Assembly: GCA_964596615.1 (NCBI GenBank)
Contig: CAZQUN010000003.1
Coordinates: 2,550 to 66,549, forward strand
Length of the DNA: 64,000 nt
Direction of reading: 5' to 3'
Origin: an uncultured Candidatus Saccharibacteria bacterium
GTDB taxonomy: Bacteria > Patescibacteriota > Minisyncoccia > Portnoybacterales > UBA2143
In this document: positions 3,057 to 61,275 of the stretch, one piece after another
Position numbering within the stretch: the stretch's first letter is position 1
Layout of the letters: each line of letters starts with the position of its first letter
Program-made: the position numbers and the translations under genes
The notes under the pieces: generated by a model
Seen by the model: only the letters and a program-made list of their open reading frames with translations
Databases searched by the model: none
What the model was told of the DNA's origin: nothing

Positions 3057-4183
3057 TTTGTTAAAACCCCTAATGTCTCTCTGGCGCATTTTTGCCAGGA
3101 AAACTTTTTGGCCCGTTCTAGGCCTTTTTTTGTTAAATGATTCCTTAAATCGTTATCAGTCAAAACTGTCTCCATGGCCCAGGCCAGTTCATCAATATTT
3201 AATGGATTAATCATCAGGGCACCGTCCCCAACCACCTCCGGCAAAGACGAATTATTCGAAACAATTGTTGGCAGTCCACAGGCCATGGCTTCTAAAGGCG
3301 GAAAGCCAAATCCTTCAAAAAAACTCGGGTAGATAAATAATTCGGCCAGACCATACAAAACGGGCTTATCCTTTTCATCAACAAAACCAGTAAAAGCAAT
3401 ATCATCCCTGTATTTTGACTGATTGACTGCCTTGAAAACATCTTTGTAAAGCCATCCTTTTGTTCCGGCAATAACCAATCTGATTAATTGTTTTTTTCTG
3501 ACTGATTCAAAAGCTTTAATTAAACCGATTAGATTCTTTCTCGGTTCAATTGTGCCAAAGTAGAGAATGAATTTATCAGGCAGATTATACTTCCCCCTAA
3601 TTTCTTCTTCTTTTTCCCTATTCTCCCCTGGTTTAAATTGTTCTCCAACCCCGGAATAAATTACCTTAATTTTTTCTTCTTTAATCTGATAAAGATTAAT
3701 TAAATCGGTTTTGGTTGAGTTTGAGACGGCAATAATCTTATCAGCTCCCCGAGCTTCTTTTCTGGTTTTCATTAAAAACCTTTGCCATAATCTTTTTCGC
3801 CAGGAAAAAAATTCTGGATAATGAATGAAAGATAAATCATGAAAAGTCATTATCTTTCTGCATTTCAAAGAAACCGGCGAAACAAAGAAATGGGGATTGA
3901 AATATGCTTCAATTCCTTTAAGAAGTTTATCAATTCTGGGTCGGTTGAAATATGTGGCCGAAGTAAAAAAAAGACGATTAGGAATCTTAAAATCCTTTAA
4001 CTCAACATTATCAAGAGAAAGCCAGGGATAATCCAAATTAACTTTTCGCAGAGCATTGTAGAAAAGATGGTAATTGGCTTTAGATTCCAGAGGAAGAAGA
4101 TAAGATAAAAGATTAATTACATATTCCTCTACTCCGGTCCTGGCACCGCGGGCTAAAACCCTGATATCAATACCGATGTTCAT
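3053..4183 (-). CDS. Glycosyltransferase family 1 (GT4-type)
   Basis: EGFGFPPLEAMACGLPTIVS motif. Start probably at the internal MNIGIDIRVLARG. Confidence 0.85.
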   Translation of the reverse strand: MNIGIDIRVLARGARTGVEEYVINLLSYLLPLESKANYHLFYNALRKVNLDYPWLSLDNVELKDFKIPNRLFFTSATYFNRPRIDKLLKGIEAYFNPHFFVSPVSLKCRKIMTFHDLSFIHYPEFFSWRKRLWQRFLMKTRKEARGADKIIAVSNSTKTDLINLYQIKEEKIKVIYSGVGEQFKPGENREKEEEIRGKYNLPDKFILYFGTIEPRKNLIGLIKAFESVRKKQLIRLVIAGTKGWLYKDVFKAVNQSKYRDDIAFTGFVDEKDKPVLYGLAELFIYPSFFEGFGFPPLEAMACGLPTIVSNNSSLPEVVGDGALMINPLNIDELAWAMETVLTDNDLRNHLTKKGLERAKKFSWQKCARETLGVLTK

Positions 4184-5252
4184 TAATAAATTTCTTAATT
4201 TTTTCCTTAAATTTTTCTTTGTCAAATTCAAGGGCTCTTTCTCTGATTTCTTCCGGATCAAAATCATTCGGATTAAAATCTTTTAATACTTTAATTAACT
4301 CTTCTGTTTTTTGTTTTTTAAAAAACAAGCCGGTTAATCCTGGCTGAATAATTTCCAGGGCACCGCCTGACTGATAAGCAATAACCGGTCGGCCGGAAGC
4401 CATTGATTCAAGAGCAGTAATGCCAAAATCTTCTTCCTGGGGAAAAATCATTGCCCGGGAATGAGCGTAATAGTATTTGAGGAGGTCGTCGGAAACCAAG
4501 CCAACAAATTCAATGTTTTTTTTGGCAATTTTGGTCAATCTTTTTCTGTCCGGACCATCGCCAATAATTTTCAACGGCCAACCAAGTTGATTAAAAGCCT
4601 TAATAGCCAGGTCGAAGCGCTTGTAGGGAAGGAACCGGCCAACCATTAAAAAGTAATCTTCTGGTTTCTGGGCAATGTAGAAAAGATTGGCTTTGACCGG
4701 CGGATGAATAACTTCTGAATCCCTTTGATAATATTTTCTTATCCTTTTTTTAACAAAATGGGAATTGGCAATAAAGGCATCGACCCGGCAGGAGGCCTTT
4801 TCATCCCAGAGTCTAATATAGTTCATGAAAAAAGGAATTAGTTTTTTAATCGGTCCAGGATAACCAAATTCTTCAATGTATTTATGGGAATCATCCCAGG
4901 CATAACGAATCGGAGTATGACAATAGCAAATATGAAGGGTTTGGGGACCGGTAATAATTCCCTTGGCGTAACTGGCTGAATCAGATAAAACCAAATCAAA
5001 ATCAGAAAAATCAAACTGTTCAACAGCAATTGGCATCAGCATTAAAAAAGGACGGTGATGGGATTTAACCAAAGGAACTCTTTGAAGAAATGAAGTCTTA
5101 ATTTTTCTTCCTTCAAAAGCATAACCGGTTCTCTTTTTATCATAAAGCAGGGTATAAATTGGCGCTTTGGGATAAATTTCAAGAAAGGCCTCCAAAACCC
5201 TTTCTGCCCCTCCATACTGATTGAGGTAGTCGTGAACCAGGGCAACTTTCAT
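4167..5252 (-). CDS. Glycosyltransferase family 1 (GT4-type)
   Basis: DFGITALESMASGRPVIAYQSGG motif; N-terminal MKVALVHDYL is typical of GT4. Confidence 0.85.
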   Translation of the reverse strand: MKVALVHDYLNQYGGAERVLEAFLEIYPKAPIYTLLYDKKRTGYAFEGRKIKTSFLQRVPLVKSHHRPFLMLMPIAVEQFDFSDFDLVLSDSASYAKGIITGPQTLHICYCHTPIRYAWDDSHKYIEEFGYPGPIKKLIPFFMNYIRLWDEKASCRVDAFIANSHFVKKRIRKYYQRDSEVIHPPVKANLFYIAQKPEDYFLMVGRFLPYKRFDLAIKAFNQLGWPLKIIGDGPDRKRLTKIAKKNIEFVGLVSDDLLKYYYAHSRAMIFPQEEDFGITALESMASGRPVIAYQSGGALEIIQPGLTGLFFKKQKTEELIKVLKDFNPNDFDPEEIRERALEFDKEKFKEKIKKFINEHRY

Positions 5253-5255
5253 ATA

Positions 5256-6644
5256 TTACTGAGCAGATTTATCCCGAAACAAAACAATCCAGGTCCTTAA
5301 AAATATTTTCAAATCCATTAGCAAGGACCAGTTTTCAACATAATAGGTATCTAATTTAATTTCTTCTTCAAAAGGCAAATCGGAACTGCCGGAGATTTGG
5401 GCAAAACCGGTCATACCTGATTTTATCGCCAAAACCTTCTTATGATGTTTTTCGTATTTGGCAATCTCATCCGGCTGATGGGGCCTTGGCCCAACCAAGC
5501 TCATTTCCCCTTTTAAAACATTGATTAACTGGGGAAATTCATCAATCCGATATTTCCTTAAGAAACGGCCAACTCTTGTTATTCTTGGATCATCCCTCAT
5601 TTTAAACAAGGGTCCTTCTTTTCTTTCATTGTAATCCCAGAGAAACCTTTTTAAATCTTCGGCTCCTTTAATCATGGAGCGGAATTTGTAAAGATTAAAT
5701 TCATTCCCCTGGCTGATTCTTTTTAATTTCTTAAAGACCGGTCCCTTGGAATCCCACTTGATAATGAAGGCGACTAAGAGGAAAAAAGGAGAAAGAATAA
5801 TTAGGCCAAGCAGAGAACCAATGAAATCAGTAATTCTTTTAATAATCCTCCCCCAGCCATCGAGGGTAGTTCTTTTTAATTCAACCAAAGGAACATCACC
5901 CAATGTTTCAACCGTAGCGTTGCTCGTTAAGGTCTGAAAAAGATTAGGAACAAACTTAAAGGTTAAGTGATTATCTTCGCAGAAATTAACTAATTCCAAA
6001 ATCTTTTCTTTGGGCCAGTCCGGATCAGCCAGAATAACTTCCTCAACACCAGGATTACTAACTTTGTTTTTAATTTCGTTAATATCAGGCTCGATTAAAT
6101 TAGTCACTAAATAATATCCCCAGATGGGCTGGTTTTTAATCTGATTGATAATCTTTTGACTAATACCGTCCTTTCCAACAACCAGAACCCGGCGAGAACC
6201 AAAATGATATTTTCTCATTAAATACCTCTGCCAACGATTAACCAAAAAACGACCAAGAGAAACAAAAACAATCGCTATTAACCAACCGGCTAAAACCAGG
6301 AACCGGGAATTGAATAATTCCTGGCGAAGGAAAATGTAGAAGACCAAAACAAAAACTCCGGCTGAAACACCGATAATGACTTTAAGAAGATCATCTAAAA
6401 GGATTCTTCTAACCTGAATTCGATAAAGTCCAACTAAGGCAAAGACAAAGAGTAGAAAAAGAGAAACCCCGGCAATCAGGGCAAAATACCGGTTAAAAGG
6501 CAAACTTAAATTAAAAAGCACCGGTCGGTATTGAACAACCATCGGACTAGTTCGCAGAAAATATGTAAAAAGCCCTGCCCCTAGAAGCATTAGAAAATCC
6601 AAAGGCGGCAGAATTGCTGTAAAGATTAATTCTGGCTTCTTCAT
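5256..6644 (-). CDS. Polyprenyl-phosphate sugar phosphotransferase (bacterial sugar transferase, WbaP/CpsE-like priming enzyme)
   Basis: N-terminal TM helices; C-terminal GPLFKMRDDPRITRVGRFLRKYRIDEFPQLINVLKGEMSLVGPRP, the bacterial sugar transferase signature. Confidence 0.85.
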   Translation of the reverse strand: MKKPELIFTAILPPLDFLMLLGAGLFTYFLRTSPMVVQYRPVLFNLSLPFNRYFALIAGVSLFLLFVFALVGLYRIQVRRILLDDLLKVIIGVSAGVFVLVFYIFLRQELFNSRFLVLAGWLIAIVFVSLGRFLVNRWQRYLMRKYHFGSRRVLVVGKDGISQKIINQIKNQPIWGYYLVTNLIEPDINEIKNKVSNPGVEEVILADPDWPKEKILELVNFCEDNHLTFKFVPNLFQTLTSNATVETLGDVPLVELKRTTLDGWGRIIKRITDFIGSLLGLIILSPFFLLVAFIIKWDSKGPVFKKLKRISQGNEFNLYKFRSMIKGAEDLKRFLWDYNERKEGPLFKMRDDPRITRVGRFLRKYRIDEFPQLINVLKGEMSLVGPRPHQPDEIAKYEKHHKKVLAIKSGMTGFAQISGSSDLPFEEEIKLDTYYVENWSLLMDLKIFLRTWIVLFRDKSAQ

Positions 6645-6710: not shown

Positions 6711-7052
6711 TGTGTCCAAGCAAGCCGTAAGCCGGGTTCTGTCTTGGATAGTCATCTATCTGGGATCAATATTACTATTGACCTCAAGCGAGCTACTTTT
6801 TTCCGCCAAAGGCGGATTTGCTCTTGCACCAGGCAGGGTTTACCACGTCTCAGCATCTCTGCCGGACGAGAGGAGTTAATCCTCACTTTTCACCTTTCCT
6901 CCCTTTAGGAGAGTACCCCTAAAGCGAAGTAGTATTGTCTCTGTGGCACTTTCCCTATTCTCACGAACGGTGGGCGTTACCCACTGCCACTTAGTGGTGC
7001 CCGGACTTTCCTCCCCCAATGGAGGGCGACTATCTAACTTACTTGGACAACT
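6711..7052 (-). ncRNA. rnpB: RNase P RNA (bacterial type A)
   Basis: Minus strand contains the universal P4 strands GGAGGAAAGTCCGGGC and ACAGAACCCGGCTTA. P1 helix: 5' TTGTCCAAGTAAG pairs with 3' CTTGCTTGGACA. No ORF over this stretch. Confidence 0.85.
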
Positions 7053-12530: not shown

Positions 12531-13523
12531 TTACTTTTTTAAAAACTCAGCTGCTTTCTCAGGTTCAATTGTAGAAATTTCCATGCCGGCTCCTAATTCA
12601 AAACCAGCCATAATTGATGTCTTGGGCAGAATATTCAAATGCCAGTGATAATGTTCATGTCCCTGGTCGTCCCCCGGCGCAGTGTGGAAATAGAAATTGT
12701 AGGCCGGATCTTTTAATTTGGTATAGATTCTGTTAAGAGCAACTCGAAAAGCATCAGCAAAAAGTTCTTTTTCCTTTTCTGTCATTTTTTCGAAATAGGG
12801 TTGGTGTTTCTTTGGATAAACCCTGACTTCAAATGAAACCTGGGGAGCAAAGGGAGAAAGAACGACAAATTCATCATTCTGATAAATTATTCTTCTTTTA
12901 TCCTTAATATCCCATCCAATCATAGAGCAGTAAACACATTTTTTATGCTTCTGGTAATAATTATCAGCGCCGTCCAGACTACTGCGCAAATCCGGGTCAA
13001 GAACCGGAATAGCAATTAATTGGGAATGAGGGTGAGCAATTGAAGCCCCGGCTTCCTTGCCATGATTATGAAAAATTGAAACGTATTTAATCAGTTCTTT
13101 ATCAATTAAATCTAAATACCTTTTTTGATATAAATCAATAACTAATTTAATTTCTTGGTTTGTCATCTGGGCCATCTGTTTTTTGTGGTCGGATGTAATA
13201 ATGACCTCGTGAAAACCAATTCCATCCATTTTCCTATTCGGTCCTTCTTCTTTTTCATTCAAAGAATCCCCTTTTGAAAGAGCCGGGAAATCATTCGGAA
13301 TGGATAAAACAAACCAGGAACCATCTGGTTTGTTTAATGTTAGAACTGATTTATCCAGAATTTTTGGCTGACAAAAAGGACATTTCTCAGGCGAAACATC
13401 GTCCCTTATTCTTTTCTCTTCGGCAAAGGTTTCCGGCCGTCTCGCCCGGCCAGTGGCAATAACGACCCAGTCATTAGAGACCAGGTCAAGCCGAAGTTCT
13501 GATGGAAATCTATCCTTTATCAT
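12531..13523 (-). CDS. galT: Galactose-1-phosphate uridylyltransferase (HIT superfamily, GalT branch)
   Basis: CPFC zinc motif and HPHSQLIAIP (HxHxQ) motif; 330 aa. Confidence 0.8.
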   Translation of the reverse strand: MIKDRFPSELRLDLVSNDWVVIATGRARRPETFAEEKRIRDDVSPEKCPFCQPKILDKSVLTLNKPDGSWFVLSIPNDFPALSKGDSLNEKEEGPNRKMDGIGFHEVIITSDHKKQMAQMTNQEIKLVIDLYQKRYLDLIDKELIKYVSIFHNHGKEAGASIAHPHSQLIAIPVLDPDLRSSLDGADNYYQKHKKCVYCSMIGWDIKDKRRIIYQNDEFVVLSPFAPQVSFEVRVYPKKHQPYFEKMTEKEKELFADAFRVALNRIYTKLKDPAYNFYFHTAPGDDQGHEHYHWHLNILPKTSIMAGFELGAGMEISTIEPEKAAEFLKK

Positions 13524-14286
13524 ATTTCCCTCTAATTAAATTCCATTTAATCTTAAAAAGTTCTTTAAAAGTATTCAAATATCCTTTTAAATTAACCCGG
13601 CTGTCAGGAGAATTTATCCAATTAACCGGAATTATTCCAATCTTGTATCCTAGTTTCCTGGCTAGAGCCAGGGATTCAATATCAAAACCCCAGCGGTCAA
13701 TTTTAAGTCGGGAAAAAATATCTTCGGTTGCCTTTTGGCTAAAAGCCTTGAATCCGCACTGGGTATCCCAGATTCCCGGTACCGCTACTAATTGAATCAA
13801 AAGGTTTCCTAGATTGCCTAATTGTCTTTTAAGAAATGACTGGGGAACGGCCTGTTTCGCTTCTTTGGCATCTTTTTTATCCCGGGAGCCAATAACAATC
13901 TGATGACCTTCGTTAAAAAGGGGTATCATTTTCTCAAAATGCTCTATGGTTGTCGCATTATCAGCATCCATAAAAAGACGGATTTCTCCTTTAGCCTCCA
14001 GCATCCCCTGTTTAACAACCCAGCCTTTGCCATGATTTTTCTCGTTATCAATCAATCTCAAATTCTTAATTAATTCAGAGAATTTACGGACTATTCCGGA
14101 AGTGTTATCCGGCGAACCATCATTAACAACAACAATCTCATAACTATACTTCTGCTCGCTCAAATACTGGTCAATGTCTAATAGGGTTTTAGTAATTCTT
14201 TTTTCTTCCCGATAAGCCGGGATAACAACAGATAAATATATTTTTTTCATATCTTGTATTATACAATAGTTTCCATTAACATACAA
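13510..14286 (-). CDS. Glycosyltransferase family 2 (polyprenol-phosphate glycosyltransferase-like)
   Basis: LSVVIPAYREEKRI N-terminus and a DxD-type region (MDAD). Confidence 0.8.
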   Translation of the reverse strand: MYVNGNYCIIQDMKKIYLSVVIPAYREEKRITKTLLDIDQYLSEQKYSYEIVVVNDGSPDNTSGIVRKFSELIKNLRLIDNEKNHGKGWVVKQGMLEAKGEIRLFMDADNATTIEHFEKMIPLFNEGHQIVIGSRDKKDAKEAKQAVPQSFLKRQLGNLGNLLIQLVAVPGIWDTQCGFKAFSQKATEDIFSRLKIDRWGFDIESLALARKLGYKIGIIPVNWINSPDSRVNLKGYLNTFKELFKIKWNLIRGKYDKG

Positions 14287-14289
14287 AGC

Positions 14290-15270
14290 ATGAAATACCG
14301 TATCATCACCTATGGCTGTCAGATGAATAAGAGTGATTCTGAAAGATTAGCCGCCAAGCTGGAAAAACAAAAATATCAGTCGGCTAATATTAAATTGGCT
14401 GATTTAATTGTAATTAATATCTGTTCTGTTCGCCAATCCGCTATTGACCGGGTTTACGCTAAAATTAGGCAGTTAAACAAACAAAAACCAAAACCAAGAA
14501 TAGTTTTAACCGGCTGTATTCTGGAAAAAGATAAAAAAATCCTCAAAAACCAGGTTAATGATATTTGGCCAATTGCTGATTTTGAAGAAAAAGCTAAATG
14601 TTTTTCAGAAAAAGAAGCTTTTGTTCCGATTATGACTGGCTGTGATAATTTCTGTTCCTACTGCGCTGTTCCATATGCCCGGGGTAGAGAAAAATCCAGG
14701 AAATCTAATGAAATTATCAAAGAAATTAAAGATTTAATCAAAAAGGATTACAAGAAAATTATTCTTCTTGGTCAGAATGTTAATAGTTATTCCGACGGAA
14801 AAACTAACTTTCCAAAACTTCTTAAATTAGTTGATAACATTGAAAGTAATTTTAGGATAGAATTTATGACATCACACCCTAAAGATTTTTCAGATGAATT
14901 AATCAATGTAATTTCAAAGAGTAAAAAAATATCAAAACAGATTCATTTGCCGATTCAGTCAGGTGATAATACAATTTTAAAGAAAATGAATCGTCGATAT
15001 ACGGTTGGCAGATACAAGAATTTAATTAAAAAAATCCGGAAGAAAATTCCGAATGTTAAAATCTCAACTGACCTTATTGTCGGTTTTCCAACTGAGACAG
15101 AAAAGCAGTTTCAAAATTCCGTTAAACTGGTTAAAGAAATGAATTTCTGCCAGATTTATGTTTCTGCTTATTCCTCCCGTCCCGGCACTGCCGCCTCAGA
15201 ATTGAAAGACAATATCCCTTCGGATATAAAGAAAAAGAGAAAGACAATTCTTTTAAAAATGATTGAATAA
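14290..15270 (+). CDS. Radical SAM methylthiotransferase, MiaB/RimO-like, lacking the C-terminal TRAM domain
   Basis: MTTase N-domain (MKYRIITYGCQMN) and radical SAM CDNFCSYCAVPYARG. It ends right after the radical SAM core at ...IKKKRKTILLKMIE, so about 100 aa including the TRAM domain are absent. Start is probably the internal MKY (14290). Confidence 0.75.
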   Translation: MKYRIITYGCQMNKSDSERLAAKLEKQKYQSANIKLADLIVINICSVRQSAIDRVYAKIRQLNKQKPKPRIVLTGCILEKDKKILKNQVNDIWPIADFEEKAKCFSEKEAFVPIMTGCDNFCSYCAVPYARGREKSRKSNEIIKEIKDLIKKDYKKIILLGQNVNSYSDGKTNFPKLLKLVDNIESNFRIEFMTSHPKDFSDELINVISKSKKISKQIHLPIQSGDNTILKKMNRRYTVGRYKNLIKKIRKKIPNVKISTDLIVGFPTETEKQFQNSVKLVKEMNFCQIYVSAYSSRPGTAASELKDNIPSDIKKKRKTILLKMIE

Positions 15271-15282
15271 AAAAAGAAAGGG

Positions 15283-15330
15283 CGTCCACTTTCTTCTTTA
15301 CGAAAATGGAGCCCTTTGCCCACTTAAAGA
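15283..15330. terminator. Bidirectional hairpin terminator between the miaB-like gene (+) and the small Thr/Pro ORF (-)
   Basis: GGGCgTCCA ...18-nt loop... TGGAGCCC, flanked by an A-run upstream and T-rich sequence downstream. Confidence 0.45.
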
Positions 15331-15332
15331 GT

Positions 15333-15467
15333 TTACCCTGAGTCGCGGGTAGTATCCGTCGATGTGGTCGGCGTCGTTGTTGTTGCCGTCGTGGTTGTCG
15401 GGGTTGTCGACGTCTTGGTGCCCTTTTTGCCTGTCCGCTCGGTATTCTTGGTATGATGCTCGGTCAT
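15333..15467 (-). CDS. Small Thr/Pro-rich peptide (44 aa), GC-rich, hypothetical
   Basis: Minus strand has a perfect SD AAGGAGG 6 nt before the ATG. Peptide: MTEHHTKNTERTGKKGTKTSTTPTTTTATTTTPTTSTDTTRDSG. Local GC is far above the surrounding sequence. A TTGACA-17-TAGTAT promoter lies upstream at 15550-15578. Confidence 0.45.
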   Translation of the reverse strand: MTEHHTKNTERTGKKGTKTSTTPTTTTATTTTPTTSTDTTRDSG

Positions 15468-15549
15468 GGTGTCCTCCTTTATTGTGAAGTACGTTACGGC
15501 GAAAATTCGCTAAACCAAACCTAGAAAGAACTAATACAAACTTATACTT

Positions 15550-15593
15550 ATACTACTATCCCCAAAAATCCATGTCAAAGGAACTTATCCACA
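15550..15593 (-). promoter_or_regulatory. Repeat module copy 1: sigma70-like promoter (TTGACA-17-TAGTAT) with adjacent TTATCCACA box
   Basis: Plus strand ccATGTCAAAGGAACTTATCCACAcc. Its reverse complement gives TGTGGATAA followed by TTGACA. It is 23/24 nt identical to copy 2. Confidence 0.5.
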
Positions 15594-15599
15594 CCTTAT

Positions 15600-15640
15600 A
15601 AAAAGAGAGGGCGCCATTGTTTCGCAACAGCGCCTCGTCA
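15600..15640 (-). terminator. Rho-independent terminator of the 21-aa ORF unit
   Basis: Minus strand GAGGCGC tgttgcgaaacaatg GCGCCCTC followed by TCTTTTT. Confidence 0.5.
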
Positions 15641-15720
15641 AACTAGTTGGCATGTACTAGGAGCACCGCGACCCCGGGCACTCTACCTGCCCATACCCGT
15701 ATTTGAGTCCCGTATTTGAG

Positions 15721-15786
15721 TCAAAAGTGGGTTTCATCCATGCGATCGTCGCCAGCATTTACCAACAGAACTAAAAGCTTCTTCAT
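15721..15786 (-). CDS. Very small ORF (21 aa, MKKLLVLLVNAGDDRMDETHF) with a strong SD
   Basis: AAGGAGG 7 nt upstream of the ATG on the minus strand. Followed by a tandem 13-bp repeat (actcaaatacggg x2) and a terminator. Confidence 0.35.
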   Translation of the reverse strand: MKKLLVLLVNAGDDRMDETHF

Positions 15787-15843
15787 TTTGACACCTCCTT
15801 GGTTAGGGGAGAATAAAAAAACACCGAAGAGCTTCCTTAATTA

Positions 15844-15886
15844 AATCATATCATTACTTAACTCCATGTCAAAGAAACTTATCCAC
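15844..15886 (-). promoter_or_regulatory. Repeat module copy 2: sigma70-like promoter (TTGACA-16-TATGAT) with adjacent TTATCCACA box
   Basis: Plus strand ccATGTCAAAGAAACTTATCCACAga. Shares about 45 nt of similarity with copy 1, including the flanking tAAAAAGA(r)GCGCC. Confidence 0.5.
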
Positions 15887-15894
15887 AGAATAAA

Positions 15895-16080
15895 AAGAAG
15901 CGCCGGGTTTAATATATCTTAATGATAAATGACGCTTTAAATTTGCAACCCTATTGGAAAGCGGGGTTACGGCTGCGCAAAAAAAATAAGGTTCTATGTT
16001 TTTCGAGAGCGGAATTCCGCTCTCATTGGTCCAAAGGGACCAATAAAGAAACAACAATGAAAGAACTCGATAATTAAATC
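15895..16080 (-). ncRNA. Candidate small non-coding RNA transcribed from repeat module copy 3
   Basis: Downstream of the perfect TTGACA-16-TATAAT promoter. No SD-preceded ORF. Perfect hairpins GGTCCctttGGACC and GAGAGCGGaattCCGCTCTC. T8 run. Confidence 0.3.
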
Positions 16081-16081
16081 C

Positions 16082-16127
16082 ATTATATAGATTCTAAACC
16101 TTATGTCAAGAAAAATTCATCCACATA
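16082..16127 (-). promoter_or_regulatory. Repeat module copy 3: perfect consensus sigma70 promoter (TTGACA-16-TATAAT) overlapping the miaA start codon; degenerate TCATCCACA box
   Basis: Reverse complement of 16082-16109 gives TTGACAtaaggtttagaatctaTATAAT. The miaA ATG (16103-16105) overlaps the -35 hexamer. Confidence 0.5.
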
Positions 16128-17023
16128 ATAGGTTAATTGTTATTCTCGGACCGACTGCTTCGGGCAAGTCATCTTTGGCTGTTAAATTAGCCAAAGAATT
16201 TAATGGTGAAATTATTTCAGCCGATTCAAGACAAATCTACAAGGAAATGGATATTGGTACGGCTAAAATTACCAAAAAAGAAATGGATGGCATTTCCCAT
16301 TATTTAATAGATATTGTTAAACCCAATCAAGGCTTTACTTTAGCCCAATACAAAAGAGAAGCGATAAAGATTATTAAAGATATTCAAAAAAAAGAAAAAC
16401 TTCCCTTTTTGGTTGGCGGCACCGGTTTATACATCCAATCAATTGTTGATAATCTGGAAATTCCTCAAGTTAAACCTGATAAAAAATTAAGAGAAAAACT
16501 GGAAAAGCAAGATACAAATGATTTATTCAGGCAATTAAAAAAACTGGATCCGGAGAGTATTCAATTTATTGACCGGAATAACAAAAGAAGAATTATCCGG
16601 GCCTTAGAAGTCTGTTTTTTGACACAAAAACCGTTTTCAAAGCAAAGAAAAAGAGGCCAACCTATATTTGATGTTTTACAGATCGGCATTAATGTTGAAA
16701 AAAATGAATTAGAAAAGAGAACAGAGAAAAGAACAGAAGAAATGATAAAGGAAGGTCTGGTTGAAGAAGTTAAAAAACTTCTTGAAAAATACAACCCTGA
16801 CCTCCCTTGTTTTAGCGGAATCGGCTATCAAGAGATAATTCCCTATCTTAAAGGAGAAATATCTCTTGATAAAGCCAAGGAGCTCATTGCCCGACATACC
16901 CGCCAGTATGCTAAAAAGCAAATGGTTTGGTTTAAGCGGGATAAGCGCATTCATTGGGTAAAGAGTTATCCCCAAGTAAAGAAATCAACCGAAAAATTCT
17001 TGTCTGGCGAGACGCTCTGCTGA
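16103..17023 (+). CDS. miaA: tRNA dimethylallyltransferase (tRNA isopentenyltransferase)
   Basis: P-loop LIVILGPTASGKSSLAV, IISADSRQIYKEMDIGTAK, LVGGTGLYIQS, RQYAKKQMVWFKR. No SD upstream of the ATG. Confidence 0.85.
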   Translation: MSRKIHPHNRLIVILGPTASGKSSLAVKLAKEFNGEIISADSRQIYKEMDIGTAKITKKEMDGISHYLIDIVKPNQGFTLAQYKREAIKIIKDIQKKEKLPFLVGGTGLYIQSIVDNLEIPQVKPDKKLREKLEKQDTNDLFRQLKKLDPESIQFIDRNNKRRIIRALEVCFLTQKPFSKQRKRGQPIFDVLQIGINVEKNELEKRTEKRTEEMIKEGLVEEVKKLLEKYNPDLPCFSGIGYQEIIPYLKGEISLDKAKELIARHTRQYAKKQMVWFKRDKRIHWVKSYPQVKKSTEKFLSGETLC

Positions 17024-17404
17024 AATAATTACTTTTTCGATGTCTGCCAACGAAGAAGATTCCAATTCACACTTTTTAGCCCTGAATGGTAAAATTGTCT
17101 CCAGGATATCCTCGATACAATAATATCTTCTGTCAACAGGATAACCGAGTTTCCGGTGTGAACAGAAGACGCATGACTTTATAGATGGTTTTTGAGGAGC
17201 AAAACACTCCAATCCGCCCTTGTTTAAAGCGAGACGCTTTACAGCACATTTTTCTCTGTTTAAGCACCATTCTTTCAAAAGAACCATACATAACCGGTGA
17301 AGTTGTACACCCTGTGCAATTTTCTCTATTCGCCTTTGGTCTGGCCAAGAACCCATTGGCTTGCCTTTTTCTAGGTCTAATATAATGTCGTGCGATTTTG
17401 GCAT
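16985..17404 (-). CDS. Hypothetical Cys-rich protein (139 aa)
   Basis: SD AAGGAGG on the minus strand. Seven Cys residues in CxnC clusters. Overlaps the miaA 3' end by 39 nt. No family recognised. Confidence 0.45.
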   Translation of the reverse strand: MPKSHDIILDLEKGKPMGSWPDQRRIEKIAQGVQLHRLCMVLLKEWCLNREKCAVKRLALNKGGLECFAPQKPSIKSCVFCSHRKLGYPVDRRYYCIEDILETILPFRAKKCELESSSLADIEKVIISAERLARQEFFG

Positions 17405-28753: not shown

Positions 28754-28824
28754 TGCGCGGTAGAGAAGTAGTATCTCGTGAGGCCCATAACCTCAAGACC
28801 CGGGTGCAACTCCCGGCCGCGCAA
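28754..28824 (+). tRNA. tRNA-like element with CAU anticodon (non-canonical D- and T-loops; possible degenerate or initiator-like tRNA-Met)
   Basis: Folds as acceptor TGCGCGG/CCGCGCA (7 bp), U8, D-stem GAGA/TCTC, anticodon stem TGAGG/CCTCA with loop CCCATAA, T-stem CCGGG/CCCGG. Has A11:U24 but lacks G18G19. T-loop is TGCAACT. No CCA. Confidence 0.35.
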
Positions 28825-28831
28825 CTCGGAT

Positions 28832-29608
28832 ATGTTATTAAGAAGATGGACCAAAGAAGAAGAGAAAAAACTTAAACACCTCTACTTAAGAACAAAAACA
28901 CCCGTAGAGGAGATTTGTCGAATTATAGACAGATCGCCACCAGCAATTCAGAATAGATTAAAAATATTAGGATTCAAGAAACGTCGGTTTCCTATCATAG
29001 CCAGACATCCAGACAAAGTTACTCCTGCCTTAGCAAGGATTCATGCTCATATATGTGGAGATGGCTGTATGTATACCCTTAGAGAGAAAGACTCTTATGG
29101 CCCATGGGCTAAATATCGAAAAAGGGCCTATAGAACTAAGTATAATACATGTTATACTAATACCAACCCAAAGCTCCTTAAAGAATTCCGGCAAGACATA
29201 CAGGAAGTTTTTGGGATTAAAGGCAAAAAACTAAGAGATTTTGATATAAGGTTAAATTCTAAAAGAATTTGGCGATTACTTAAAGAGATGGGCGCAGGAA
29301 ATTCTCATGAATGGTCTATCCCGAAATCTATCACCCAAGGATCGTCTAATGTGAAAAAGAGTTGGATTAGGGCGTTTTTTGATGACGAGGCGTATTTCAA
29401 TGACCGAGGCAGAATCAGAGTAAAGTGCGTGAATAAAAAAGGGCTCCAGCAAATTACTAAGATATTAAATGAGTTTATTCCATGTAATCTTTTGCCGAAA
29501 AAAGGTTCGTATTGGGGAAATACTTTTTGTATAAGTATAAATAAAAAGGATGCTCCTAAATATTTCTCTAAAATAGGTTCACTTCGTTATAGTATAATGA
29601 AAAAATAA
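28832..29608 (+). CDS. Free-standing LAGLIDADG homing endonuclease (double-motif, with N-terminal HTH)
   Basis: Two LAGLIDADG-type motifs about 108 aa apart (ARIHAHICGDGCMY and IRAFFDDEAYF). N-terminal HTH-like WTKEEEKKLKHLYLRTKTPVEEICRII. The listed ORF start (28778) overlaps the tRNA-like element; MLLRRW (28832) is more likely. Confidence 0.7.
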   Translation: MLLRRWTKEEEKKLKHLYLRTKTPVEEICRIIDRSPPAIQNRLKILGFKKRRFPIIARHPDKVTPALARIHAHICGDGCMYTLREKDSYGPWAKYRKRAYRTKYNTCYTNTNPKLLKEFRQDIQEVFGIKGKKLRDFDIRLNSKRIWRLLKEMGAGNSHEWSIPKSITQGSSNVKKSWIRAFFDDEAYFNDRGRIRVKCVNKKGLQQITKILNEFIPCNLLPKKGSYWGNTFCISINKKDAPKYFSKIGSLRYSIMKK

Positions 29609-29612
29609 TCAT

Positions 29613-29686
29613 GGCGGCGTAGCTCAACTGGTTAGAGCGGGAGACTCATAAGCTCCAGGTTACAGGTTCAAGTCCTGTCGCCGCTA
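29613..29686 (+). tRNA. tRNA-Met or tRNA-Ile2 (anticodon CAU)
   Basis: Cloverleaf GGCGGCG-TA-GCTC-AACTGGTTA-GAGC... with anticodon loop CTCATAA and T-arm ACAGG-TTCAAGT-CCTGT. Resembles both E. coli elongator Met and ileX. No CCA. Confidence 0.85.
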
Positions 29687-29701
29687 CTAAAATTAAATAA
29701 T

Positions 29702-29775
29702 GGGGGCGTAGCTTAGTGGTTTAAAGCGTCTGCCTGTCACGCAGAAGATCGAGGGTTCGAATCCCTTCGTCCCCG
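29702..29775 (+). tRNA. tRNA-Asp (anticodon GUC)
   Basis: GGGGGCG acceptor, anticodon stem TCTGC/GCAGA with loop CTGTCAC, T-arm GAGGG-TTCGAAT-CCCTT, discriminator G. Confidence 0.9.
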
Positions 29776-29787
29776 CAGTTAGAAAAT

Positions 29788-61086: not shown

Positions 61087-61124
61087 AAAACACCATTAAT
61101 TAAAATGGTATTTTGTGAATCCTG

Positions 61125-61196
61125 GGTGCCCGGAGGGAGTTGAACCCTCGTCGCTAGTTCCACAAACTAGAGCTCTACCGTTGAGCTACGAGCACC
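61125..61196 (-). tRNA. tRNA-His (anticodon GUG) with encoded G-1
   Basis: Minus strand G-GTGCTCG-TA-GCTC-AACGGTA-GAGC..., anticodon loop TTGTGGA, T-arm GAGGG-TTCAACT-CCCTC, discriminator C pairing G-1. Confidence 0.85.
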
Positions 61197-61199
61197 ATC

Positions 61200-61275
61200 T
61201 GGCACGCCTGGAGGGAGTCGAACCCCCGACCTAAGGTTTAGAAAACCTCCGCTCTATCCGCTGAGCTACAGGCGC
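61200..61275 (-). tRNA. tRNA-Arg (anticodon UCU), CCA encoded
   Basis: Minus strand GCGCCTG-TA-GCTC-AGCGGATA-GAGC, anticodon stem GAGGT/ACCTT with loop TTTCTAA, T-arm GGGGG-TTCGACT-CCCTC, then CCA. Confidence 0.85.

Follow-up and report, generated by a model that had tools for sequence, protein, structure and literature searches.

A threonine-rich small open reading frame with its own predicted expression signals in a miaB–miaA spacer of a patescibacterial genome

Is the threonine-rich open reading frame (sORF) at positions 15333..15467 on the minus strand of the window (the whole stretch of DNA that was analysed, 64,000 nt in length) a real small protein gene? An earlier note on this DNA had read it as a peptide gene with a mucin-like composition and a possibly foreign origin. 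Searches with the flanking proteins place the window in Patescibacteria/CPR. The explanation that we prefer, and to which we give about an even chance, is that the sORF is an orphan, lineage-restricted small protein gene, young and under weak constraint, in a monocistronic minus-strand unit of its own.

Anatomy of an inserted minus-strand unit

The sORF sits in an 832-nt spacer between two tRNA-modification genes, accompanied by predicted expression signals on its own strand:

14254..15270, plus strand: flanking gene for a MiaB-family radical-SAM methylthiotransferase, convergent with the sORF
15266..15317, minus strand: intrinsic terminator, a 16–17 bp hairpin (15317-15277) followed by the U-run CUUUUUUU
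15333..15467, minus strand: sORF, 44 codons (MTEHHTKNTERTGKKGTKTSTTPTTTTATTTTPTTSTDTTRDSG) and a stop
15479-15473, minus strand: Shine–Dalgarno sequence AAGGAGG, 5 nt (ACACC) before the sORF ATG
15498..15511, minus strand: 5'-UTR stem-loop AGCGAAUUUUCGCC, with the same sequence in the sister locus L001
15578..15550, minus strand: sigma-70-type promoter of the sORF, TTGACA-17-TAGTAT, matching 10 of 12 consensus positions
15569..15593, minus strand: copy 1 of a promoter module, TGTGGATAAGTTCCTTTGACATGGA, with the 9-mer TGTGGATAA and then the -35 hexamer
16103..17023, plus strand: flanking gene miaA, whose first approximately eight codons read as the promoter module in reverse complement

The translation given in the earlier note matches exactly, and its promoter and hairpin terminator were found again; the Shine–Dalgarno sequence is likewise present, with a spacer of 5 nt and not the claimed 6 nt. 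The claimed 12-nt periodicity had to be given up, as the repeat is a plain 3-nt pattern, (ACN)n / (GTN)n, with equal autocorrelation at each multiple of 3 and with TRF periods of 15 and 9. The sORF promoter is among the best consensus matches in the 64 kb, together with the promoters of the RNase P RNA and tRNA genes, and AAGGAGG is rare in the window, where a start codon follows most of its copies. The sORF stop codon lies about 15–20 nt from the terminator hairpin, which is T-tailed on the minus strand only and not on the plus strand, and whose U-run overlaps the miaB stop codon. Folding leaves the RNA over the sORF segment essentially without structure.

The GC content is 0.52–0.56 over 15300-15499, far above the window average of approximately 0.39 as had been noted, and this excess is due to ACC, ACG, and CCG codons. 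T accounts for only 10 of the 135 nt of the sORF on the minus strand, which leaves the region stop-free in all six frames; the open frame alone is no more than is expected by chance. What rises above chance is that promoter, Shine–Dalgarno sequence, ATG, and terminator occur in combination and that L001 has conserved this combination. In the expression unit that we envisage, a near-consensus sigma-70 promoter would produce a leader of approximately 75 nt with a small stem-loop, a perfect Shine–Dalgarno sequence and ATG would follow, and the 44 codons would be closed by a strong intrinsic terminator.

We gathered relatives by MiaA-anchored scans of genome and metagenome collections, which yielded 160 loci. 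Most relatives have no spacer between miaB and miaA, and the gap ranges from -16 to about 80 nt (-15 in L081, -16 in L086, +5 in L084, and +43 in L087). As the two genes overlap or lie <100 nt apart in these more distant relatives, the spacer is an insertion into an operon junction; no plus-strand promoter was found in its 832 nt. The sORF unit occurs in only one of the 160 loci, the sister locus L001 (CAZQMX010000004.1), and no intermediate relative carrying it was found among them. The insertion into the formerly tight junction would therefore date to the common ancestor of the host genome and one sister species. The small Thr/Pro-repeat peptides that the earlier note envisaged in CPR relatives came down to the single homologue in L001.

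The MiaB-family protein of the window (338 aa) is without a C-terminal TRAM domain. The domain is also absent from MiaB of the closest relatives, and a TRAM segment still precedes miaA in L016, L007, L104, L114, and L091.

Signals and frame retained in a sister genome

The flanking proteins of L001 are about 77–94 per cent identical to those of the window. At the DNA level, the two units share approximately 70 per cent identity over 414 nt, compared to approximately 84–85 per cent for the flanking DNA. The L001 homologue is a peptide of 42 aa (MTDITRNTKGTKSKDAKATPVVKTPATTTTPTDTTGRHTNSG) that is 48–51 per cent identical to the window peptide, and the two ORFs differ in length by 6 nt (44 versus 42 codons). 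L001 retains the promoter module including the -35 hexamer, the UTR hairpin GGCGAATTTTCGCC, the Shine–Dalgarno sequence, and the ATGACCGA start, as well as the internal GCAACAAC.AC.ACGCCGAC and ACGGATACTACC and the TCAGGGTAA stop, with both peptides ending ...SG-stop. Its equivalent of the terminator hairpin has changed stem bases and has kept their pairing. The 5' and 3' UTR islands are as well conserved as the ORF. Since the promoter, Shine–Dalgarno sequence, ATG, stop, and terminator are conserved on the minus strand only, we chose the minus strand as the coding one.

Mismatches between the two sORFs are distributed as 14/12/22 over the three codon positions. The NG86 omega of the Thr frame is 0.32–0.42 (dS about 1.0), in a test of two sequences only with a protein-guided alignment that favours the tested frame, whereas four other frames of the region give 0.8–1.3; at most 1.7 per cent of neutral simulations reached the observed value, which is lower than 98–99 per cent of them. 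The antisense Val frame, whose wobble positions are common with those of the Thr frame, gives 0.40–0.44. Among the neighbours, omega is 0.15 for MiaB, 0.14 for MiaA, and 0.07 for both GT2 and GalT. When the two ORFs are aligned as nucleotides without constraint, the alignment is ambiguous, with gaps that are not all multiples of 3, and indels in a triplet repeat keep the frame automatically, which weakens the argument from frame conservation. Conservation of the reading frame at a homologous locus, which the earlier note had singled out, is present in this single relative, with third-position-biased substitutions. Frame, start, stop, and synonymous bias, the generic criteria for a coding sORF, are thus all found in the one relative available (n = 2, in a triplet-periodic repeat). 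Together with the retained Shine–Dalgarno sequence and terminator, the net frame and the low omega lend the claim of a real small peptide gene moderate support. The sORF may well be translated, and its peptide would then evolve fast under weak purifying selection.

Across 12531-17023, the window and L001 have not diverged to an equal extent: GalT and GT2 have 93–94 per cent protein identity and dS of 0.36–0.52, and MiaB and MiaA have 78–80 per cent identity and dS of about 0.86. The miaB–sORF–miaA segment either evolves faster or has been exchanged by recombination.

Compositionally, the sORF is strongly atypical. Threonine accounts for 21 of its 44 codons (48 per cent), including six rare ACG codons; ACG makes up 29 per cent of the Thr codons versus 5 per cent, GC3 is 0.68 versus 0.35, and AAG is preferred over AAA. 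The codon-usage comparison proposed earlier therefore fits a young or a foreign gene. In the ACN run, codon positions 1 and 2 are fixed and position 3 varies over A, C, and G, as expected from selection for Thr and not from a slippage repeat. Met1 and one Ala are the sole hydrophobic residues, and neither a signal peptide nor a hydrophobic segment could be read from the peptide sequence. AlphaFold predicts no secondary structure (pTM 0.21). The product would be a hydrophilic, unstructured, cytoplasmic peptide without an export signal, with an N-terminal half that appears Lys/Arg-rich and a C-terminal half that appears to be poly-Thr/Pro. Cys is absent. We rejected a RiPP precursor, because the neighbours miaB, miaA, GT2, and GalT all occur in relatives without the peptide and the peptide has no Cys.

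Homology searches returned no relatives beyond L001. No Pfam-A or NCBIfam family matched the window or L001 peptides (E <= 0.1–1), nor the peptide of a second unit in the spacer (unit B, see below). The intergenic region had no gathering-level match in Rfam 15, and a permissive scan gave chance-level matches only (E >= 0.5). The alignment of the two peptides had no match among 5.8 billion protein clusters in a word-indexed search, and an exhaustive phmmer search of 1.84 billion representatives produced no match to the sORF peptide. Exact look-ups found the peptide neither on record nor called on an identical public Logan contig, where gene callers skipped the ORF, much as the earlier note had expected of standard tracks. 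Searches of phages and plasmids with blastn gave only chance ACN-rich matches (Gordonia, Streptomyces), the promoter module had no match in viral contigs, and a literature search found nothing relevant. A foreign origin is possible and has in its favour the insertion of the unit relative to distant relatives and its atypical codon usage; the protein, phage, plasmid, and viral-contig searches found neither a donor nor a homologue.

Among known kinds of genes, the sORF probably belongs with the unannotated, lineage-restricted sORFs. Like other orphan bacterial sORFs and microproteins of <50 aa, it is short, is uncalled by gene finders, and has its own promoter, Shine–Dalgarno sequence, and terminator; it also evolves fast, with a product predicted to be disordered and with no homologues beyond a narrow clade. 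Unlike them, it is extreme in its threonine content, uses host-atypical codons, and is inserted in a conserved operon junction. If translated, it would be one more unannotated lineage-specific microprotein in a CPR genome. The locus is a clean case of a young gene with expression signals inside a conserved tRNA-modification operon junction, and such cases are useful for studying the origin of small genes in streamlined genomes; the sORF opens no major question alone.

Three tandem units in the spacer

More unusual is the architecture, in which a promoter -35 hexamer also serves as the start codon of miaA and the promoter–terminator junction has undergone two duplications. The spacer consists of three tandem minus-strand units (unit A, with the sORF, and units B and C), each of which starts with TGTGGAT(A/G)A-N-TT-N3-4-TTGACAT and ends in a related terminator tail, GGCGC(C)CT(C)TCTTTTTAT. 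Their promoters match 10, 11, and 12 of 12 consensus positions and rank with the strongest of the 64 kb. The further features are as follows:

15569-15593, 15863-15887, and ~16104-16130 (degenerate), minus strand: copies of the promoter module
15600..15887, minus strand: unit B, with module copy 2 (15863-15887) and AAGGAGG at 15800
15872-15845, minus strand: unit B promoter, TTGACA-16-TATGAT
15786-15721, minus strand: unit B ORF of 21 codons (MKKLLVLLVNAGDDRMDETHF), resembling a truncated signal peptide
15696-15721, minus strand: perfect tandem repeat in unit B, 13 nt twice (CCCGTATTTGAGT)
15634-15610, minus strand: unit B terminator, clean and with a T-tail (unit B also has a GC-rich stretch)
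15890..16130, minus strand: unit C, with a degenerate module (TGTGGATGAATTTTTCTTGACAT) and a terminator-like tail (CGGCGCTTCTTTTTAT)
16109-16082, minus strand: unit C promoter, a perfect TTGACA-16-TATAAT overlapping the true start codon of miaA (16103)

No homology was found among the bodies of the three units. The body of unit C contains two perfect hairpins side by side, UUGGUCCCUUUGGACCAA and GAGAGCGGAAUUCCGCUCUC (fold z = -3.99); the unit matches no Rfam family and contains no convincing ORF. Unit B is absent from L001 and has no homologue among the fetched loci. A 13-nt complementarity between the unit B RNA and the 3' end of the sORF is at chance level and was discarded.

Whereas the window has three units, the spacer of L001 has one, and the single module copy of L001 is the miaA start. 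In the window, the reverse complement of module copy 1 is ATGTCAAAGGAACTTATCCACA, a pseudo-copy of the miaA start. In reverse complement, the -35 region of the sORF promoter, TTGACAT, reads ATGTCAA, as does the miaA start, and the reverse complement of the module, ATGTCAA.GAAACTTATCCACA, supplies miaA with its start codon and initial codons. MiaA begins MSTKLIHN... in L001 and MSRKIHPHN... in the window, compared to MHNKLIV... in relatives without the insertion; the insertion thus remodelled the N-terminus of MiaA. Given this reverse complementarity between the -35 hexamer of the sORF and the miaA start codon, transcription of the sORF would be physically interlocked with miaA initiation, and it may also modulate miaA expression.

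The 9-mer TGTGGATAA matches the DnaA-box consensus exactly and occurs in only two perfect copies in the window, 294 nt apart and both in the module. A replication origin (oriC) was considered and rejected, as these two perfect boxes both lie in the duplicated module and the cumulative GC skew runs monotonically across this part of the window. Bacillus subtilis sda is a small gene controlled by DnaA boxes. Like sda, the sORF encodes a peptide of approximately 45 aa behind a promoter with a perfect candidate DnaA-box 9-mer (TGTGGATAA / TTATCCACA); unlike sda, it has only one box per promoter, it shows no sequence similarity, and it belongs to an unrelated organism. A more speculative reading, which we regard as quite unlikely, is that the miaB–miaA spacer is a growing tandem array of promoter-to-terminator cassettes with a common module of approximately 25 nt and unrelated bodies, which captures or duplicates mini-genes (sORFs or small RNAs), possibly under DnaA control, and which would have been founded by the cassette of the Thr-rich peptide. 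If true, it would represent a previously undescribed capture and duplication of mini-genes at one chromosomal site in CPR bacteria.

Alternative readings of the unit and other features of the window

It is conceivable, although we think it rather doubtful, that the unit is strongly transcribed and non-coding, either as a small RNA or as an antisense or transcription-interference unit whose three promoters oppose miaB read-through, overlap the start of miaA, and so tune or insulate that gene. The ORF and Shine–Dalgarno sequence would then be incidental, or would only load ribosomes that stabilise the RNA. Such a role accords with the operon implied by overlapping or abutting miaB and miaA in relatives, against which all inserted units point, with a terminator that is T-tailed on the minus strand only in a spacer where no plus-strand promoter was found, and with the coincidence of the -35 hexamer and the miaA start codon. 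Promoters similar in strength to those of RNA genes, UTR islands conserved like the ORF, and atypical codon usage are further points on this side. An incidental ORF is harder to reconcile with a Shine–Dalgarno sequence and ATG at ideal spacing and a stop position that are conserved in L001, with third-position-biased substitutions at an omega of 0.3–0.4, and with an ORF region that has no stable structure and no Rfam match. That the unit is non-functional inserted DNA (a drifting remnant of a Pro/Thr-linker gene, or a triplet expansion behind a promoter by chance) is unlikely in our judgement: the promoter, hairpin, Shine–Dalgarno sequence, start, stop, and terminator have been kept across a dS of approximately 1, the terminator stem still pairs despite base changes, and CPR genomes are compact, with most relatives having no spacer at this junction. 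Decay would nevertheless explain an orphan without homologues, a unit that is less similar to L001 than its flanks are (approximately 70 versus 84–85 per cent nucleotide identity), an omega 3–6 times that of neighbouring genes, and the scrap-like units B and C, with a 21-codon ORF like a truncated signal peptide and with stray hairpins.

Three more specific functions have been weighed against the preferred reading of a small protein gene. We consider it very unlikely that the locus is a type I toxin–antitoxin system, with a Val-rich hydrophobic peptide of 30 aa on the plus strand (MVGVVVVAVVVVGVVDVLVPFLPVRSVFLV, 15364-15456) as toxin and the minus-strand RNA as antisense antitoxin. The peptide has a toxin-like size, and the omega of its frame is as low as that of the Thr frame, with which it shares wobble positions. 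Type I toxin–antitoxin and small-RNA loci can be tandem, as are Ldr/Rdl and Ibs/Sib in Escherichia coli, and the spacer resembles them in its tandem units of approximately 240–300 bp with similar ends and in a hydrophobic ORF antisense to an abundant-looking RNA. Unlike in those loci, the GTG of the hydrophobic frame has no Shine–Dalgarno sequence, its start and stop are not conserved (the frame in L001 spans 3669 to 3902, across the minus-strand Shine–Dalgarno sequence), and the unit bodies are mutually unrelated; moreover, no plus-strand promoter was found for this frame, units B and C have no hydrophobic plus-strand ORF, and ACN codons automatically produce a Val-rich frame on the opposite strand. 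A Thr-codon-sensing leader peptide is scarcely probable. As in a thrL-type attenuator, stalling at ACN codons, and at the rare ACG codons in particular, would gate read-through of the terminator, and the sORF is indeed short, with a run of Thr codons that ends near a strong intrinsic terminator. It is, however, twice the length of thrL, and the minus strand beyond it consists only of miaB antisense, with no co-directional biosynthetic operon. The minimum free energy and centroid folds contain the terminator only, with no competing helix common to the window and L001 that could act as an antiterminator. MiaA and MiaB modify tRNAs that read UNN codons, not ACN codons. The mucin-like, O-glycosylated peptide tied to the glycosyltransferases of the window, as the earlier note had proposed, now seems extremely improbable, even though the composition is Thr/Pro-rich, with a low complexity of the TTTTPTT type as in Pro/Thr-rich linkers and mucin-like domains, and a GT2 gene is located at a distance of 1 kb. 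Unlike such domains, the peptide is free-standing, without flanking domains, a signal peptide, or a specific glycosyltransferase partner, and its lack of a hydrophobic segment makes Sec export and mucin-like surface display implausible. GalT and GT2 lie upstream of miaB and are syntenic beside it in at least eight relatives without the sORF; these glycosyltransferases are therefore not specifically associated with the peptide, and by NCBIfam, GT2 is like polyprenyl-phosphate sugar transferases and not protein O-glycosyltransferases.

Elsewhere in the window, a 139-aa Cys-containing ORF (16985-17404, minus strand) with a strong Shine–Dalgarno sequence (AAGGAGGAGATATG) overlaps the 3' end of miaA; it has no Pfam match on record and no tblastn match in any related locus. 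At the equivalent position, L001 has a different, Cys-rich ORF of 166 aa (4863-5363, minus strand). The window also carries a bacterial class A RNase P RNA (221.8 bits) and five tRNA genes (Met, Met, Asp, His, and Arg), located as follows:

6713-7045 (minus strand), 28754-29776, and 61124-61275: RNase P RNA and tRNA genes

The promoters of the RNase P RNA and tRNA genes are of the near-consensus sigma-70 type, like the three promoters of the spacer.
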